From NCBI RefSeq assembly GCF_041886205.1, contig NZ_CP169029.1: DNA of 64,000 nucleotides; one strand, 5' to 3'. The notes below the pieces were generated by a model. It saw only the letters and a list, made by a program, of their open reading frames with translations. It was not told the DNA's origin and made no database searches. A program made the translations under genes and the position numbers. Below are positions 1 through 12,790 of this stretch, piece after piece (the stretch's first letter is position 1; every line of letters starts with the position of its first letter). This stretch comes from Escherichia coli. GTDB lineage: Bacteria > Pseudomonadota > Gammaproteobacteria > Enterobacterales > Enterobacteriaceae.

Positions 1-114
1 GCAAGCCTGACTACAGGGAGCGTCATGACATAATAAACAGCGAGAGGCTTCTTTAATCGCCAGTAAAGGCGTAAAAGCCGGAGTGAGTTCATCCAGATAA
101 TTTTGTTGCGGCAT
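1..114 (-). CDS. preT: NAD-dependent dihydropyrimidine dehydrogenase subunit PreT, 5' end only (gene continues past window start)
   Basis: Reverse-strand ATG at 114 followed by MPQQNYLDELTPAFTPLLAIKEASRCLLCHDAPCSQAC, open to position 1; matches remembered PreT N-terminus and expected neighbour of yeiS. Confidence 0.75.
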   Translation of the reverse strand, partial: MPQQNYLDELTPAFTPLLAIKEASRCLLCHDAPCSQAC

Positions 115-307
115 GTGATCTTCCTTAATGCTATGAGTAATTAAGGCGAACGCTAAATAAATATTGCGTGCTGATATTAAGGCTAAGCGTGTGGGGAAAT
201 TTAAACTGTGAAAGGATTCACAATTAGCTGCGGTTCAGAATGTTATATCCGCAGCTTATTGAGTGAAGTAATAATTATTCTCAATAATTAACAGAAAAGA
301 GAAAATA

Positions 308-2303
<1,996 letters not shown>

Positions 2304-2432
2304 GGCGTTGCCTCATAATCATGTAATGGGATAACAGTTTACGAACCCGTTATGGCTTTATATGTGATCTGAATCTCATTAATTATGCAACGCGTGAAAC
2401 TTACATCAAAAATGCGCGACGCATCGCAAATT

Positions 2433-3559
<1,127 letters not shown>

Positions 3560-3653
3560 TTAATTCGTAAAACGTGCTACCGATCACATTAAGAATTCTC
3601 AGCATAGTTGAATTTTAGGGAAGTAACCTCGGGCGATCGCCCAGTTCAGCACA

Positions 3654-4562
3654 CTAATTCTGCTGTAAAAAGTGCAGAAACTGACTTAAAGCATAAGAAG
3701 GCGTTTCGTTATTGCGCCAGAACACACCGACGCTGCCTTTCTGTTCTATCTTTGGCAGGTTGAGGATCACCAGTTGTCCCTGGCTGGCATAACGTTGCGC
3801 CAGGCGTAATGACAAAATAGAGATCATATCGCTGCTTTGTAACAGGTTGGTACTGACGTTCATCGACGCCGACTCAATCGTGTTTTCTGGCAGCATCACG
3901 CCGTGGTCTACCAGCGCATTATCAATGCTGATGCGGATGGGGGTACCTGTCGGCCAGACTATCCACCGCCAGTTAGCAAGATCATTCCAGCTGAGGGTGG
4001 CGTATTTCGCCAGTGGATGCTCAGGACGGGCGACAAAACACACCGGCTCGGTGTAGAGCACGCGATAATTCAGCGGCAGCTGCAACGCGCGACCGCCAAT
4101 TCGCCCAACCACCACATCGACAGAACCTGCCAACAGATCTTGCAGCAATGGGGTCATCACCTTCTCTTCGATATTCAGGTGTAGAGTTGGCATCTCCTTG
4201 AGCAAATGCAAAATCGCCTGGGATACGCAGTCAGTGGCGACGGGAGAACAGCCAATTTTCAGACTGCCGACCAGACCACCTTGTTTAAAACGGGCCAGTT
4301 CATGTTGCGAGCGCTCCATGTCATTGATTAACCGTTGGGCATGTTGCAATAACAATTTGCCGCCTTCAGTAGGACGAAGTCCTTTGCTGTGCCGCTCAAA
4401 AAGTGTGAGTCCGATCTCATCTTCCAGATGTGACAACCATTTCGAAAGCGCGGGTTGGGTGATATTCATCATCCGTGCGACATGGGTCAGATTACCCTGT
4501 TCACCCAGCGCCACCAGCATTTGCAGGTGATGAAGCTTTAGTTTCTGCGCCCAGTTTGCCAT
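3654..4562 (-). CDS. LysR-family transcriptional regulator of the gentisate cluster (MhbR-like), 302 aa
   Basis: N-terminal HTH (LKLHHLQMLVALGEQGNLTHVARMMNITQPALSKWLSHLE) typical of LTTRs; divergent from catabolic operon. Confidence 0.85.
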   Translation of the reverse strand: MANWAQKLKLHHLQMLVALGEQGNLTHVARMMNITQPALSKWLSHLEDEIGLTLFERHSKGLRPTEGGKLLLQHAQRLINDMERSQHELARFKQGGLVGSLKIGCSPVATDCVSQAILHLLKEMPTLHLNIEEKVMTPLLQDLLAGSVDVVVGRIGGRALQLPLNYRVLYTEPVCFVARPEHPLAKYATLSWNDLANWRWIVWPTGTPIRISIDNALVDHGVMLPENTIESASMNVSTNLLQSSDMISILSLRLAQRYASQGQLVILNLPKIEQKGSVGVFWRNNETPSYALSQFLHFLQQN

Positions 4563-4567
4563 TTGCC

Positions 4568-4583
4568 ATAACCTTCAGGTTAT
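4568..4583. promoter_or_regulatory. perfect 16-bp palindrome ATAACCTTCAGGTTAT, candidate LTTR operator in divergent promoter region
   Basis: Dyad-symmetric sequence read directly in the 126-bp regulator/transporter intergenic region; role inferred. Confidence 0.3.
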
Positions 4584-4688
4584 CTCTCTGCTCGAAATGC
4601 CATTGTACATTTCATCTCTTTAATCACAATATCGCAACATACACAAAACAAAAGAAACATCTACCTTACCTGCACTGAGGCATTTACT

Positions 4689-6047
4689 ATGACTCAACGA
4701 CGTGATCTACAAGCACTGATCGATGCCGCTCCGGTCGGCAAGATGCAGTGGCGCGTTATCATCTGCTGTTTTCTGGTGGTAATGCTCGATGGTTTTGACA
4801 CCGCGGCTATCGGCTTTATCGCCCCTGATATTCGCACTCACTGGCAACTCACCGCAGGCGATCTCGCCCCGCTTTTTGGCGCGGGTCTGCTGGGGTTAAC
4901 CGCAGGCGCACTGCTTTGTGGCCCGTTGTCCGATCGCTTTGGTCGCAAACGGGTGATTGAGCTGTGTGTCTTTTTGTTTGGCGCGTTAAGCCTTGCCTCG
5001 GCTTTCTCACCGGATCTGCAAACGCTGGTATTCCTGCGTTTCCTAACCGGCCTTGGGCTGGGTGGCGCGATGCCAAACACCATCACCATAACCTCGGAAT
5101 ATCTGCCTGCCCGCCGCCGCGGCGCGCTGGTGACGCTGATGTTTTGCGGCTTTACGCTGGGTTCGGCGTTTGGCGGGATTGTTAGCGCGCAGCTGGTGCC
5201 GGTGATTGGCTGGCACGGCATTCTGGTGTTGGGGGGCGTGTTACCGCTGATGCTGTTTGTCGCACTGCTGGTAGTTCTGCCGGAATCGCCACGCTGGCAG
5301 GTGCGCCGCCAGCTACCGCAGGCGGTGATTGCGAAAACCGTCAGCGCCATCACCCGCGAGCGTTATGTCGATACCCACTTTTATCTCATTGAATCAGCCT
5401 CCGTTACAAAAGGCAGCATTCGTCAACTGTTTATGGGACGTCAGTTACCCATCACGTTGATGCTGTGGGTAGTGTTCTTTATGAGCCTGCTGATTATTTA
5501 CCTGCTCTCAAGCTGGATGCCGACGCTACTGAACCATCGCGGCATCGACCTGCAACACGCGTCCTGGGTCACCGCCGCGTTCCAGATTGGTGGTACGTTA
5601 GGCGCGCTGGCGCTGGGTGTGCTGATGGATAAGTTCAATCCTTTCCGCGTACTGGCACTGAGCTATGCCATAGGCGCTGTATGCATCGTGATGATTGGCT
5701 TAAGCCAGGACGGATTATGGCTGATGGCGCTGGCGATTTTCGGCACCGGCATTGGTATTAGCGGATCGCAGGTGGGGCTGAATGCGCTGACCGCCACACT
5801 TTATCCAACACAAAGTCGCGCCACGGGCGTGAGTTGGTCAAACGCCGTGGGTCGCTGCGGTGCGATTGTTGGCTCGCTTTCTGGCGGCGTGATGATGGCG
5901 ATGAATTTCTCTTTCGACACCCTGTTTTTCATTATCGCTGTGCCCGCGGCGATCAGTGCGGTGATGTTAGCCTTGCTGATTACCGTGGTTCGCCAGTCGA
6001 CCTCTGTCCCTGACTCACTGCCTCGCGCAGGCGTTGTGAACGAATAA
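4689..6047 (+). CDS. MFS aromatic-acid:H+ symporter (3-hydroxybenzoate/gentisate transporter, MhbT-like), 452 aa
   Basis: 452-aa 12-TM ORF with MFS signature [11 protein letters not shown]; first gene of catabolic operon. Confidence 0.85.
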
Positions 6048-6058
6048 GGAGCATCCTA

Positions 6059-7087
6059 ATGACTGATAACAATCAAAATAGCCGCGAACAATTTTATCAG
6101 CACATTTCCGGGCAAAACCTGACCCCGCTGTGGGAGTCACTACACCATCTGGTGCCGAAAACGCCCAACGCTAACTGTGTGCCAGCGTACTGGAATTATC
6201 AGGAGATCCGCCCGCTGCTGCTGGAGAGCGGCAGCCTGATTGGCGCGAAAGAGGCGGTGCGCCGCGTGCTGGTGCTGGAAAACCCGGCGCTGCGCGGGCA
6301 GTCTTCCATCACCGCGACTTTATATGCCGGTTTGCAACTGATCATGCCGGGCGAAGTGGCACCGAGTCATCGCCATAACCAGTCGGCGCTGCGTTTTATT
6401 GTTGAAGGCAAAGGGGCATTTACCGCCGTTGACGGCGAACGCACGCCAATGAATGAGGGCGATTTTATCCTCACTCCGCAGTGGCGCTGGCACGATCACG
6501 GTAACCCTGGCGACGAACCAGTTATCTGGCTCGATGGGCTGGATCTGCCATTAGTGAATACTCTGGGCTGCGGTTTTGCCGAAGATTACCCGGAAGAGCA
6601 ACAACCGGTAACGCGTAAAGAGGGCGATTATCTGCCGCGTTACGCTGCCAATATGTTGCCGCTGCGCCATCAGACCGGGAACTCCTCACCCATCTTTAAC
6701 TACCGTTATGACCGCAGCCGCGAAGTGCTGCACGATTTAACCCGCCTGGGCGATGCCGATGAGTGGGATGGCTACAAAATGCGCTACGTCAACCCGGTCA
6801 CCGGTGGCTATCCGATGCCGTCGATGGGCGCTTTCCTGCAACTGCTGCCGAAAGGGTTCGCCTCCCGCGTGGCGCGTACCACTGACAGCACCATCTATCA
6901 CGTGGTGGAAGGCGGCGGGCAGGTCACCATCGGCAATGAAACCTTCAGCTTTAGTGCAAAAGATATCTTCGTGGTGCCGACCTGGCACGGCGTGTCGTTC
7001 CAGACCACGCAAGATACCGTGTTATTCAGTTTTTCGGACAGACCGGTACAAGAAGCCCTGGGACTGTTCCGCGAAGCGCGTTATTAA
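6059..7087 (+). CDS. gentisate 1,2-dioxygenase (bicupin), 342 aa
   Basis: 342-aa ORF with cupin His motif ([16 protein letters not shown] ... WRWHDHGN); size typical of gentisate dioxygenases. Confidence 0.85.
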
Positions 7088-7102
7088 TTTGGGAGAGAAA
7101 AA

Positions 7103-7804
7103 ATGACTCAATACGTATTCGAACCACAAGCGCCCGTTACCGTACCGGTTGTTGGCAGTGATGAACAATTCCCCGTGCGCCGCGTGTACTGCGTCGGACG
7201 TAACTATGCCGCCCACGCCCGCGAAATGGGCTTTGATCCGGATCGTGAACCGCCATTCTTCTTCTGCAAACCGGCGGATGCCGTTGTTCCGGTTGCCGCT
7301 GGCGAAACGCTGGCGCTGCCGTATCCGGCGCAGACCGATAACTACCATTACGAAATTGAACTGGTGGTGGCGATTGGTAAAAAGGGCAGTGATATCCCGC
7401 TGGAAAACGCCCATGAATATGTCTGGGGTTATGCCACGGGTCTTGATATGACTCGTCGTGACCGTCAAATGGAAATGCGCCAGATGGGCCGCCCGTGGGA
7501 AATCGGCAAAGCGTTTGATCTCTCGGCCCCCATCGCGCCGCTGCACAAAGCCAGCGAAACCGGCGGTATTGATAACGCGCCAATCTGGTTACAGGTTAAC
7601 GGCGAAGATCATCAGCGCAGCGATATTCGCCATCTCATCTGGTCAGTGAATGAAACCATCAGCTACCTGTCCGGCTTTTTTGAACTGCAACCGGGCGATC
7701 TGATCTTCACCGGTACGCCGGAAGGGGTTGGCCCGGTAGTGAAAGGTGATGTGATCACGGGCAACGTCGAGGGCTTAACGCCTATCGCGGTGAAAATTGT
7801 CTGA
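7103..7804 (+). CDS. fumarylpyruvate hydrolase (FAH family), 233 aa
   Basis: 233-aa FAH-fold ORF directly downstream of the dioxygenase. Confidence 0.8.
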
Positions 7805-7809
7805 GGTGC

Positions 7810-8457
7810 ATGATGAAGCTGTACAGTTTTTTTAATAGTTCAGCATCGTACCGGGTACGCATTGCGCTGGCGCTGAAAGGCATTGATTACCATACCGAAG
7901 GGGTGAATATCCGCATTGGTCAGCAAAATGAACTGGCCTACCGGCGGATGAATCCGGTCGGGCTGGTGCCGACGCTGCTGACTGACGAGGGCGAATCACT
8001 TGGACAATCGCTGGCGATTATTGACTGGCTGGATCGTCACTACCCCCAAGTTCCGCTGATGCCGCAGGAAGAGCCGGCCCGCAACAAGGTGCTGGAAATT
8101 GTCTATGCCATCGCCTGTGATATTCATCCACTGAATAACCTGCGCGTGCTGCGCTACCTGACCGAAGAGCTGAACGTCAGTGAAGAAGATAAAAAACGCT
8201 GGTATGCGCACTGGATCCAGCAAGGGTTAAGCGCGGTGGAACAGCTGTTGCGCCAGAGCCAGTCGGGGCAATTTTGCGTGGGCGAGACGCCGACGCTGGC
8301 AGATTGCTGCCTTGTCCCGCAGTGGGCGAACGCGCTACGCATGAACTGCGATCTGAGTGGGTATCCGCGCTGCAAAGCGGTGTACGACGCCTGCACGCAG
8401 CTGCCAGCGTTCATTGCCGCAGCGCCAGAAAATCAACAAGATAAAATTTCAGCCTGA
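7810..8457 (+). CDS. maleylpyruvate isomerase (GST zeta-like), 215 aa
   Basis: GST N-terminal thioredoxin-like fold (MKLYSFFNSSASYRVRIALALKGIDY); operon context. Confidence 0.8.
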   Translation: MMKLYSFFNSSASYRVRIALALKGIDYHTEGVNIRIGQQNELAYRRMNPVGLVPTLLTDEGESLGQSLAIIDWLDRHYPQVPLMPQEEPARNKVLEIVYAIACDIHPLNNLRVLRYLTEELNVSEEDKKRWYAHWIQQGLSAVEQLLRQSQSGQFCVGETPTLADCCLVPQWANALRMNCDLSGYPRCKAVYDACTQLPAFIAAAPENQQDKISA

Positions 8458-8468
8458 CCAGGAGAACC

Positions 8469-9665
8469 ATGATGACTAAAGTGACACGCGCAGTAATTGT
8501 GGGAGGCGGGATCGGCGGTGCGGCAACTGCGCTGTCACTGGCCCGCCAGGGGATCAAAGTGGTGCTGCTGGAAAAGGCGCATGAGATTGGTGAGATTGGC
8601 GCGGGCATCCAGTTGGGGCCAAATGCGTTTTCGGCGTTGGATAGCCTCGGCGTCGGCGAAATCGCCCGCCAGCGCGCGGTATTCACCGATCACATCACCA
8701 TGATGGATGCGGTAAACGCCGAAGAAGTGGTGCGCATTGAAACCGGTCAGGCCTTTCGCGACCATTTCGGCGGCCCTTACGCGGTGATCCACCGGGTTGA
8801 TATTCACGCCTCGGTGTGGGAAGCGGTACTGACGCATCCGGACGTGGAATATCACACCTCCACCAACGTCGTGGATATTCGTGAGACGGAAGACGATGTC
8901 ACCGTGTTTGACGATCGCGGCAATAGCTGGAGCGGCGATATTCTGATTGGCTGTGATGGCGTGAAGTCAGTGGTGCGCCAGAGCTTATTAGGCGATGCGC
9001 CGCGCGTCACCGGACATGTGGTCTACCGCGCAGTTATCGATTGTGCGGATATGCCGGAAGATTTGCGCATTAACGCACCAGTACTGTGGGCGGGGCCGCA
9101 CTGTCACCTGGTGCATTACCCTTTGCGCGGCGGCAAGCAGTATAACCTGGTGGTGACATTCCACAGCCGCCAGCAGGAAGAGTGGGGCGTGAAGGATGGC
9201 AGTAAAGAGGAAGTGCTCTCTTACTTTGAAGGGATTCACCCCCGTCCTCGCCAGATGCTGGATAAACCGACCTCCTGGCGACGCTGGTCAACCGCCGACC
9301 GTGAACCGGTAGCGAAGTGGGGAACGAAGCGCATTACGCTGGTTGGCGATGCGGCCCATCCGGTGGCGCAGTATATGGCGCAGGGTGCCTGTATGGCGTT
9401 GGAAGACGCGGTAACGCTCGGCAAGGCGCTGGCGCAGTGTGAGGGGGATGCGGCGCAAGCCTTTGCACTGTATGAGTCGGTACGTATTCCGCGCACCGCG
9501 CGCATCGTCTGGTCGACCCGTGAAATGGGGCGGGTTTATCACGCCGCAGGAGTAGAGCGCCAGGTACGAAACCTGCTGTGGAAAGGTAAATCGCAGGCAG
9601 AGTTTTACCGCGGCATGGAGTGGCTGTACGGCTGGAAAGAAGATAACTGTCTGCAACCACGCTGA
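8469..9665 (+). CDS. 3-hydroxybenzoate 6-hydroxylase (FAD-dependent monooxygenase), 398 aa
   Basis: Rossmann GxGxxG ([20 protein letters not shown]) near N-terminus; salicylate-hydroxylase-like length; last gene of cluster. Confidence 0.8.
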
Positions 9666-9685
9666 GTACTTTAATCCGCTGACCG

Positions 9686-9715
9686 GAGGCGCTAACATAG
9701 CGCCTCATTTTTTTG
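9686..9715 (+). terminator. intrinsic terminator after catabolic operon
   Basis: Hairpin gaggcgct-aacat-agcgcctc followed by atttttttg. Confidence 0.5.
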
Positions 9716-9726
9716 CGGGTGATGAT

Positions 9727-10674
9727 ATGCGTGTGTTACTGGCGCCGATGGAGGGTGTGCTTGACTCTCTGGTGCGTGAATTGCTGACCGAAGTTAACGA
9801 CTACGATCTGTGCATCACCGAGTTTGTCCGCGTGGTGGATCAACTGCTGCCGGTAAAAGTCTTTCATCGCATTTGCCCTGAGCTACAAAACGCCAGCCGG
9901 ACACCATCCGGTACGCGGGTGCGCGTTCAGTTGTTAGGTCAGTTCCCACAATGGCTGGCAGAGAACGCCGCCCGTGCGGTGGAATTAGGTTCCTGGGGCG
10001 TGGATCTCAATTGCGGCTGCCCGTCGAAAACGGTTAACGGCAGCGGCGGCGGGGCGACGTTACTCAAAGATCCTGAACTCATCTACCAGGGTGCAAAAGC
10101 GATGCGTGAAGCTGTACCGGCGCATTTGCCCGTCAGCGTGAAAGTGCGTCTGGGCTGGGACAGCGGTGAGAAGAAATTTGAAATCGCCGATGCGGTTCAA
10201 CAGGCTGGTGCTACGGAGCTGGTGGTGCATGGACGGACAAAAGAGCAGGGTTACCGCGCGGAGCATATTGACTGGCAGGCGATTGGCGAGATTCGCCAGC
10301 GGCTGAATATTCCGGTGATTGCCAACGGTGAAATCTGGGACTGGCAGAGTGCGCAACAATGCATGGCGATCAGCGGCTGCGACGCAGTGATGATTGGTCG
10401 CGGGGCGCTCAATATTCCCAACCTGAGCCGGGTGGTAAAATATAACGAACCGCGAATGCCGTGGCCGGAGGTGGTTGCTTTGCTGCAAAAATATACCCGT
10501 CTGGAAAAGCAGGGCGATACCGGGTTATATCACGTAGCGCGGATTAAACAGTGGTTGAGTTATTTGCGTAAAGAATACGATGAAGCAACAGAATTATTTC
10601 AGCATGTTCGGGTGTTGAATAATCCCCCTGATATTGCAAGGGCTATTCAGGCAATTGATATCGAGAAACTCTAA
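9727..10674 (+). CDS. dusC: tRNA-dihydrouridine(16) synthase DusC, 315 aa
   Basis: 315-aa ORF beginning [22 protein letters not shown]-barrel Dus family; synteny. Confidence 0.92.
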
Positions 10675-11353: not shown

Positions 11354-12790
11354 ATGAATCGTGATTCCTTTTATCCCGCCATCGCCTGTTTTCCGCTGTT
11401 ACTGATGCTGGCCGGGTGTGCGCCTATGCATGAAACCCGCCAGGCGTTAAGCCAGCAAACGCCCGCTGCACAAGTTGACACCGCATTACCCACGGCGCTG
11501 AAAAATGGTTGGCCAGACAGCCAATGGTGGCTGGAGTATCACGATAATCAGCTCACTTCATTAATTAACAATGCACTACAGAACGCACCGGATATGCAGG
11601 TGGCTGAACAGCGCATTCAGCTAGCTGAAGCCCAGGCGAAGGCAGTTGCCACTCAGGATGGTCCGCAGATCGACTTTTCGGCGGATATGGAGCGGCAAAA
11701 AATGTCGGCAGAAGGCTTAATGGGGCCGTTTGCTCTGAACGATCCGGCCGCAGGTACGACCGGCCCGTGGTACACCAACGGTACTTTTGGCTTAACGGCG
11801 GGCTGGCATCTCGATATCTGGGGAAAGAATCGGGCGGAGGTTACTGCCCGCCTGGGTACGGTTAAAGCACGGGCGGCGGAACGCGAGCAAACCCGCCAAT
11901 TGCTGGCTGGCAGCGTAGCCCGCCTGTACTGGGAGTGGCAAACCCAGGCGGCGTTAAACACGGTCTTGCAGCAAATAGAAAAAGAGCAGAACACCATTAT
12001 CGCGACCGATCGCCAGCTATATCAGAACGGGATTACTTCTTCAGTTGAAGGTGTGGAAACCGATATTAATGCCAGCAAAACCCGGCAGCAGCTCAACGAT
12101 GTCGCGGGGAAAATGAAAATTATTGAGGCACGGTTAAGCGCACTTACAAATCACCAGACAAAGTCATTGAAGCTTAAACCGGTCGCGTTGCCGAAAGTGG
12201 CAAGCCAGCTTCCTGATGAACTGGGGTACTCCTTACTGGCCCGGCGGGCAGATTTGCAGGCGGCGCACTGGTACGTTGAGTCATCGCTAAGCACCATTGA
12301 TGCGGCAAAAGCGGCATTTTATCCTGACATCAACCTGATGGCCTTCCTGCAACAGGATGCGTTGCACTTAAGCGATCTGTTCCGTCATTCCGCGCAGCAA
12401 ATGGGCGTTACGGCAGGCCTGACGCTACCCATTTTCGATAGTGGTCGTCTTAACGCCAATCTCGATATCGCAAAAGCCGAAAGCAACTTGTCTATCGCCA
12501 GCTACAACAAAGCGGTGGTTGAAGCGGTGAATGACGTGGCGCGGGCAGCCAGTCAGGTTCAGACACTTGCGGAGAAAAACCAGCATCAGGCGCAAATTGA
12601 GCGCGATGCCTTGCGTGTGGTAGGTCTTGCGCAGGCGCGCTTTAACGCGGGCATCATTGCTGGTTCCCGCGTCAGCGAAGCCAGAATCCCCGCGCTGCGT
12701 GAGCGGGCCAATGGCCTGTTATTGCAAGGGCAGTGGCTGGATGCCTCCATTCAACTCACTGGTGTGTTGGGCGGGGGTTACAAACGCTGA
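11354..12790 (+). CDS. mdtQ: outer-membrane efflux lipoprotein MdtQ (TolC/OprM family), apparently intact, 478 aa
   Basis: Track ORF 11264..12790 trimmed to MNRDSFYPAIACFPLLLMLAGCA lipobox start; continuous reading frame. Confidence 0.8.
   Translation: MNRDSFYPAIACFPLLLMLAGCAPMHETRQALSQQTPAAQVDTALPTALKNGWPDSQWWLEYHDNQLTSLINNALQNAPDMQVAEQRIQLAEAQAKAVATQDGPQIDFSADMERQKMSAEGLMGPFALNDPAAGTTGPWYTNGTFGLTAGWHLDIWGKNRAEVTARLGTVKARAAEREQTRQLLAGSVARLYWEWQTQAALNTVLQQIEKEQNTIIATDRQLYQNGITSSVEGVETDINASKTRQQLNDVAGKMKIIEARLSALTNHQTKSLKLKPVALPKVASQLPDELGYSLLARRADLQAAHWYVESSLSTIDAAKAAFYPDINLMAFLQQDALHLSDLFRHSAQQMGVTAGLTLPIFDSGRLNANLDIAKAESNLSIASYNKAVVEAVNDVARAASQVQTLAEKNQHQAQIERDALRVVGLAQARFNAGIIAGSRVSEARIPALRERANGLLLQGQWLDASIQLTGVLGGGYKR

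Follow-up and report, generated by a model that had tools for sequence, protein, structure and literature searches.

The stretch analysed here (the window) is 64,000 nucleotides of Escherichia coli chromosomal DNA (contig NZ_CP169029.1, assembly GCF_041886205.1), to which all plain coordinates refer. We consider the interval between yohJ and dusC, which is filled by six intact open reading frames (ORFs): a gene for a LysR-type regulator (mhbR) and, divergent from it, the five-gene operon mhbT-mhbD-mhbH-mhbI-mhbM (4689-9665), whose genes are separated by gaps of 8-15 bp. The initial annotation had described a divergent LysR gene followed by a five-gene operon at this place, and the ORF map and the family scan agree with it, coordinates included. 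It had also regarded the genes as an island, and here our reading differs. We believe that the interval is very probably an intact mhbR/mhbTDHIM locus (the slash marks divergent transcription), that is, a vertically inherited enterobacterial pathway for the use of 3-hydroxybenzoate (and gentisate) as a carbon source, and that it was not inserted here. The limits first given for the region, 3560 and 9726, are the base after a TTG-extended yohJ ORF and the base before dusC; they enclose the whole intergenic yohJ-dusC interval, and the part that truly varies is 3596-9668. The interval and its flanks are 100% identical to those of E. coli strain wlxctx60 (bear faeces, Japan).

The proteins were compared with the NCBIfam models, which have curated cut-offs, and with structures of the Protein Data Bank (PDB). 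Three enzymes, MhbD, MhbM and MhbI, exceed the curated cut-offs of equivalog models. MhbD scores 600 bits with TIGR02272 (gentisate 1,2-dioxygenase; cut-off 442) and 790 bits over residues 1-342 with PDB 2D40, the gentisate 1,2-dioxygenase of E. coli O157:H7, to which it is near-identical over the full length. It retains His104, His106 and His145, which are the iron ligands of the 2D40 enzyme according to what PMC4585797 relates of Adams 2006. MhbM scores 760 bits over residues 2-397 with NF006021 (3-hydroxybenzoate 6-monooxygenase; cut-off 459) and has both the GGGIGG motif for flavin adenine dinucleotide (FAD) and Arg169. Its nearest structure is 4BJY (269 bits), deposited under the title 'probable salicylate monooxygenase', which we take to be the 3-hydroxybenzoate 6-hydroxylase (3HB6H) of Rhodococcus jostii. 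Judging from its sequence, MhbM is a 3-hydroxybenzoate 6-monooxygenase of the group A flavoprotein hydroxylases, with a predicted regiochemistry of hydroxylation. MhbI scores 308 bits with TIGR01262 (maiA; cut-off 171), 235 bits with PDB 6JWK and 165 bits with the maleylpyruvate isomerase NagL of Ralstonia (2V6K/2JL4), and the motif SSASYRVRIAL is present at its N-terminus. By its context, the substrate of MhbI would be maleylpyruvate rather than maleylacetoacetate.

The remaining three proteins are assigned at the level of families. MhbH matches PDB 6J5Y over the full length (381 bits) and 4MAQ, 'putative fumarylpyruvate hydrolase' (251 bits); its best NCBIfam match reaches 154 bits against a cut-off of 201, which is a family-level match only. 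By these comparisons it is clearly a member of the FAH fold family. MhbT scores 379 bits with TIGR00895, the model of the aromatic acid:H+ symporter (AAHS) subfamily (cut-off 418.55), and 426 bits with PcaK, also below the cut-off. It carries both motifs given for AAHS transporters in PMC5566891, namely DGXD, present as DGFD (residues 33-36), and GXXXD(R/K)XGR(R/K) (residues 78-87). The RefSeq name of this transporter is MhbT, and it would presumably import 3-hydroxybenzoate. Asp82, Val311 and Asp314 are present in it as well. These three residues of MhbT and Arg169 of MhbM are reportedly essential in the Klebsiella proteins. The best NCBIfam match of MhbR is PcaQ (187 bits, below the equivalog cut-off), and its assignment is at the family level; its orthologues are syntenic in all genera examined. 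A different aromatic pathway, which the initial annotation had named as the alternative, is not borne out, as the proteins match the gentisate/3-hydroxybenzoate models and structures (2D40, NagL, 4MAQ).

In the proposed pathway, MhbT would take 3-hydroxybenzoate into the cell, and MhbM would hydroxylate it at C6 to gentisate with FAD, NAD(P)H and O2. The ring of gentisate would then be opened by MhbD, an Fe2+ bicupin dioxygenase, to give maleylpyruvate; MhbI, a glutathione-dependent glutathione S-transferase (GST) of the zeta class, would isomerise maleylpyruvate to fumarylpyruvate, and MhbH would hydrolyse the latter to fumarate and pyruvate. The same pathway is described for Klebsiella M5a1 and Salmonella Typhimurium (PMC3572157).

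The known systems resemble the window locus to different degrees. The mhbRTDHIM cluster of Klebsiella pneumoniae M5a1 has the same six genes in the same order and orientation (R divergent; T-D-H-I-M), as related of Jones and Cooper 1990, Robson et al. 1996, Lin et al. 2010 and Xu et al. 2012 by the papers that cite them (PMC3572157, PMC5566891). Loci of the K. oxytoca group (not of M5a1 itself) occupy the same slot between yohJ and dusC, and their syntenic orthologues have 84-92% amino acid identity, which is a species-level divergence. Strain M5a1 is presumably now placed in the K. oxytoca/michiganensis group. The gentisate cluster of E. coli O157:H7 is the same locus at the same site, and its dioxygenase aligns over 342 of 342 residues and has the same iron ligands; it differs by a nucleotide identity of 95-97% (synonymous divergence, dS, 0.11-0.21) and, 3' of mhbM, by an extra insert of about 97 bp before the terminator. 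The crystal structure of this dioxygenase dates from 2006 (PDB 2D40; Adams et al. 2006, Mol Microbiol 61:1469, as cited in PMC4585797). The gentisate pathway of Salmonella Typhimurium, in the account that PMC3572157 gives of Goetz and Harmuth 1992, corresponds to the same six genes between yohJ and dusC; the Salmonella locus has 78-83% nucleotide identity to the window, matching the flanks, and hence only a genus-level divergence. The modules of Betaproteobacteria (nagI/K/L of Ralstonia sp. U2 and gtdR-gtdA-maiA-gtdT of Cupriavidus necator) share the chemistry, with a dioxygenase, a glutathione-dependent isomerase and a FAH hydrolase under a LysR regulator. However, they differ in gene order, and the dioxygenase is about 60% identical in Variovorax-type loci; the Ralstonia module is linked to upper pathways for naphthalene/salicylate, and the inducer in C. 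necator is maleylpyruvate. The window locus is a member of the mhbRTDHIM family, which was originally defined in Klebsiella M5a1, and shows an allele-level divergence only from the published examples; its biochemistry, organisation and type of regulator are known. Two statements of the initial annotation are upheld by this: the match to the mhb pathway of Klebsiella and Salmonella, by gene identities, gene order and syntenic orthologues, and the judgement that the biochemistry is not novel, by the equivalog models passed and the O157:H7 dioxygenase already crystallised.

For the origin of the locus, one genome per species was scanned with the dioxygenase, followed by tblastn of twelve local proteins. 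The order sanA-cdd-yohK-yohJ-mhbR/mhbTDHIM-dusC(-mdtQ) is common to Escherichia albertii, a divergent Escherichia labelled E. coli E69, Salmonella enterica, at least eight Citrobacter, Klebsiella oxytoca, K. michiganensis, K. grimontii, K. spallanzanii, Raoultella, Kluyvera, Pseudocitrobacter, Pluralibacter, Pseudenterobacter, Shimwellia, Entomohabitans and others. The order R/T-D-H-I-M is identical in all enterobacterial loci compared (more than 40), and the cluster has one and the same position and orientation in more than 15 genera. In all comparisons between genera, the mhb genes equal their flanks in nucleotide identity, in identity at third codon positions and in dS. The dS to E. albertii is 0.35-0.58 in the cluster and 0.33-0.74 in the flanks; that to Salmonella is about 1.0-1.9 in cluster and flanks alike. 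No integrase, tRNA gene or insertion sequence (IS) is present at the locus in the annotation and the ORF list, and no direct repeats are found at the borders, 3596 and 9668. The terminator of the mhb operon is kept 12 nt before the start codon of dusC in cluster-less E. coli. The same slot across genera, the divergence that tracks the flanks and the lack of mobility signatures argue that the mhb locus is ancestral at this site, where the ancestor shared by Escherichia, Salmonella, Citrobacter and Klebsiella would already have carried it and passed it on vertically; the K-12 state would be derived, the cluster having been lost by the E. coli that lack it.

The opposite view, that a horizontally acquired genomic island was inserted between yohJ and dusC in the lineage of this strain, seems to us highly improbable. 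It would agree with the absence of the genes from K-12 and about 89% of E. coli, and with a GC content of 55.7% in the cluster as compared to 49.6% and 52.7% in the flanks (51.1% in the whole window), which is a modest excess. Elsewhere, the cluster is also clearly mobile: a pathogenicity island and conjugative IncF plasmids harbour copies of it flanked by IS elements, and in Serratia it lacks the yohJ/dusC flanks. Nevertheless, an insertion is contradicted by the identical position and orientation in so many genera, by the inter-genus divergence equal to that of the flanks and by the borders free of integrase, tRNA, IS and repeats. In addition, the E. coli alleles are at least 94% identical to each other, at most 90% identical to E. 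albertii and at most 83% identical to other genera; owing to this clustering, none of them is a recent import. Thus, we return to the ancestral locus, which has a consequence for comparative genomics: absence from K-12 does not imply acquisition, and this locus appears to be ancestral to the family and lost repeatedly. As to the Serratia copies, the same six genes are found in S. marcescens, S. bockelmannii and S. ureilytica with 80-82% nucleotide identity to E. coli, which suggests a lateral transfer from Enterobacteriaceae into Serratia.

Within the species, we used 5,426 complete E. coli genomes and counted a genome as a carrier if it had at least 80% of the cluster. The cluster is found in 611 genomes (about 11%), and about 89% lack it. 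The native junction on the yohJ side is present in 503 of the 611 carriers, so that about 108 genomes hold the cluster solely at a secondary site. An alternative spacer is present in 4,918 of the 5,426 genomes and is partial in only 3. The carriers include the O157:H7 and O55:H7 genomes sampled, which make up approximately half of them (an estimate from a spread-sampled match list). At least five allele classes can be distinguished, with 100-98.6%, 96.8%, 95.9%, 95.3% and 93.8% identity. In K-12 MG1655 and HS, yohJ adjoins dusC with a 238-bp spacer; the adjacency of the two genes in K-12, as stated in the initial annotation, is thus correct, and the alignment of the interval to K-12 and other E. 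coli indeed leaves most genomes without the six genes. Neither 'accessory' nor 'island' should be understood as an insertion, considering that the slot is the same across Enterobacteriaceae and the divergence equals that of the flanks. The description 'strain-specific' was an overstatement for a minority allele that hundreds of sequenced strains have in common.

Several points weigh against our reading, the GC excess mentioned above among them. MhbR, MhbT and MhbH are below the NCBIfam equivalog cut-offs, because dedicated curated models do not exist, and their specificities rest on context. Growth of the window strain on 3-hydroxybenzoate is a prediction from the genes. A plus-strand promoter of mhbT could not be placed confidently by the consensus scan and the control-region alignment. 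The spacer of the empty site, described below, bears no trace of the cluster, and so a simple deletion does not explain this site. Finally, the dS of 0.11-0.21 between the window and O157 in the cluster compares with 0.03-0.06 in yohK, yohJ and dusC, a 2-5-fold excess that needs an old polymorphism or an exchange between lineages on top of vertical descent. The excess suggests either an old polymorphism whose flanks were made uniform by recombination, or a regain of the cluster from other carriers.

Regain deserves a separate discussion. The cluster could have been lost early in E. coli, and homologous recombination with carriers within E. coli or Escherichia could later have restored the whole yohJ-dusC region in some lineages, in which case the patchiness would reflect re-acquisition as much as retention. 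We regard this as quite possible, while leaning somewhat against it. The excess of synonymous divergence over the flanking genes and the five or more allele classes can be read in this way; the flanks of the window are as close to those of cluster-less strains (98.0-98.8%) as to those of O157 (about 98.4%), and in strain TR01 recombination is visible at the left junction. On the other hand, regain is compatible with an ancestral presence, to which it merely adds recombination, and no donor lineage was identified. In TR01, an O157:H7 strain, the left junction, at positions 4001-4044 of locus L086, is a hybrid: at the left end of the cluster, a stretch of equal length is replaced by the first 38 nt of the spacer of the empty allele, and the upstream cdd and yohK are of the HS type. 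Such a junction testifies to recombination between alleles with and without the cluster.

The ancestral reading also has to accommodate the empty allele. Strains of the K-12 type have, in place of the cluster, an unrelated single-copy sequence of 108 bp (positions 2097-2204 of the HS locus, L002; the same in K-12), which is found only in E. coli and folds into a perfect 12-bp hairpin (z = -4.45). Its local alignment to the whole cluster (both strands), to the ends of the cluster and to the O157 insert is no better than that of shuffled sequences. It has no match by blastn-short in all loci compared and no credible match in Rfam; in plasmid and phage collections it occurs only in mislabelled E. 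coli chromosome records. The HS terminator lies at about 2222-2250 of L002 and is also present in the K-12 locus (L089), and no plus-strand gene precedes it there. Such an orphan terminator might influence the expression of dusC. A candidate deletion scar in strain NCTC9100 was rejected: its 186-bp mhbM remnant belongs to a pathogenicity-island copy cut by IS30 and not to the native site.

It is tempting to propose that the presence or absence of the cluster at yohJ-dusC is an old polymorphism, which E. coli actively maintains, although we think it rather unlikely. Three arguments lead to this proposal: the cluster alleles are 2-5 times more synonymously diverged than their flanks; the empty allele is no clean deletion and has a structured 108-nt sequence with an orphaned terminator before dusC; and lineages with the empty site regained the cluster on the efa1/lifA pathogenicity island or IncF plasmids. 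The last of these suggests that livestock-associated and Shiga-toxin-producing strains have repeatedly been selected for the use of hydroxybenzoate.

The ratio of nonsynonymous to synonymous divergence (dN/dS) is 0.03-0.12 across all six genes, within E. coli included, and 0.03-0.07 for mhbR. All six mhb genes are under strong purifying selection. 3-Hydroxybenzoate and gentisate are breakdown products of gut and plant phenolics. The cluster might be intact yet cryptic or re-purposed in E. coli, serving gentisate or dietary phenolic acids only or being poorly expressed, with no growth on 3-hydroxybenzoate; we consider this improbable. We found neither growth data for E. coli carriers nor population studies of the cluster in the searchable literature, and the homologous LysR system of Cupriavidus necator responds to maleylpyruvate and not to the aromatic acid, gentisate (PMC11603403). 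However, the low dN/dS in six of six genes, the transporter and mhbM included, argues that the whole pathway is still used, and the control region has been kept invariant. In Klebsiella M5a1 and Salmonella Typhimurium, orthologous clusters enable growth on 3-hydroxybenzoate, according to what PMC3572157 cites of Jones and Cooper 1990 and Goetz and Harmuth 1992, and K-12 provided with the Klebsiella genes grew on this compound (Robson et al. 1996, as cited in the same paper). From its gene content, we presume that the window strain, similarly to O157:H7, should use 3-hydroxybenzoate and gentisate, which K-12 cannot. The practical value is mainly a correct annotation; no new biochemical or regulatory question is opened.

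Table 1. Features of the yohJ-dusC interval and its flanks (window coordinates)
Feature	Position	Strand	Remark
yohJ	3125-3523	-	left flank
Presence/absence segment among E. coli, 6,073 bp	3596-9668		alignment to the HS and K-12 empty sites
mhbR, LysR-type transcriptional regulator, 302 aa	3654-4562	-	divergent from the operon
Control region, 126 bp	4563-4688		between mhbR and mhbT
Perfect dyad ATAACC-N4-GGTTAT	4568-4583		6 bp from the mhbR start codon; invariant in the alignment
CCATTGTAC	4600-4608		on the minus strand, -10 box TACAAT of the predicted mhbR promoter; invariant in the alignment; promoter scan
-35 box TTGTGA of the predicted mhbR promoter	4629-4624	-	promoter scan
Conserved block AACATA	4636-4641		alignment
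Shine-Dalgarno sequence GAGG of mhbT	4678-4681	+	alignment
mhbT, MFS transporter (aromatic acid:H+ symporter), 452 aa	4689-6047	+
mhbD (gtdA), gentisate 1,2-dioxygenase, 342 aa	6059-7087	+
mhbH, FAH-family fumarylpyruvate hydrolase (predicted), 233 aa	7103-7804	+
mhbI (maiA), zeta-class GST-type maleylpyruvate isomerase (predicted), glutathione-dependent, 214 aa	7813-8457	+
mhbM, FAD-dependent 3-hydroxybenzoate 6-monooxygenase (predicted), 397 aa	8472-9665	+
Intrinsic terminator of the mhb operon, 9-bp GC-rich stem, 3-nt loop, T7	9686-9714	+	terminator scan
dusC	9727-10674	+	right flank

The control region was aligned in 22 sequences from about 15 genera, the plasmid and pathogenicity-island copies included, and contains four nearly invariant blocks. 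Of these, the dyad is the obvious candidate for the recognition site of the LysR-type regulator. It is downstream of the predicted mhbR promoter, a position that would fit autorepression of MhbR together with activation of the divergent operon. Thus, MhbR would bind the dyad and, with an aromatic or ring-cleavage inducer, would activate the operon while repressing its own gene.

A single strong plus-strand terminator is found 3' of mhbM (fold energy -24.4 kcal/mol, z = -3.0). It has the sequence GAGGCGCTA-ACA-TAGCGCCTC followed by T7, ends 12 nt before the ATG of dusC and is conserved 3' of mhbM in other genera. The five genes would form one transcript ending at it. The Rfam scan of 3300-9900 reports no structured RNAs. 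In Kluyvera and Pseudenterobacter, unlike the other genera, the 5' leader of mhbT has a hairpin-forming insertion of about 44 bp, which immediately precedes the Shine-Dalgarno sequence. The allele of O157 strain FORC_044 has the extra insert of about 97 bp (within positions 7666-7790 of L084), which is GC-rich, contains a palindrome, lies between the mhbM stop codon and the terminator, and resembles a small intergenic repeat element; the window allele is without it.

The secondary copies are of two kinds. In strain 99-3311 (positions 8001-14070 of L003), the whole cluster, with 95.3% identity, is in a chromosomal pathogenicity island beside efa1/lifA, among IS3, IS66 and ISEc60 elements or fragments. 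Its right flank includes about 55 bp of the O157-type insert that follows mhbM, which means that this copy derives from an O157-like allele. The second kind is located on conjugative IncF plasmids, with 26 copies in the complete E. coli genomes and 93.8% identity. In the one plasmid examined, pHNSHP24-2 (IncFIA/FIC; positions 6928-12953 of L088), the flanks are IS66, IS3 and IS2 transposases and a fragment of an EspK/GogB effector, and the DNA match to the window leaves about 55 bp at the 3' end of mhbR uncovered. The secondary copies are also under purifying selection. We considered a discrete mobile cassette with fixed ends; it was rejected for the right end in view of the roughly 55 bp of O157-type insert in the island copy. 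The coincidence of the left end of the island copy with that of the E. coli indel (about 3595-3603) remains, and no repeats or recombinase sites were found there. Such copies, whether on a virulence island or a plasmid, might serve as a minor marker of niche adaptation.

Some database records of the cluster are misleading. A contig labelled 'MAG: Collinsella sp.' (L048; MAG, metagenome-assembled genome) is 98-99% identical to the E. coli pathogenicity-island copy and has lost mhbH, mhbI and the 3' end of mhbD; it is almost certainly a binning contaminant. PLSDB contains Salmonella 'plasmid' records of 300-500 kb (L087, H84-H87); the one examined, L087/H84, has sanA, cdd, yohJK, dusC and mdtQ in the chromosomal order and is a chromosome fragment labelled as a plasmid. 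A few multi-Mb E. coli 'plasmid' records (e.g., NZ_CP134663.1) look mislabelled in the same way, judging by their size. Beyond dusC, mdtQ (11354-12790) is an intact ORF of 478 aa in the window, and RefSeq annotates it as intact in the identical strain; in K-12 MG1655, mdtQ is a pseudogene.

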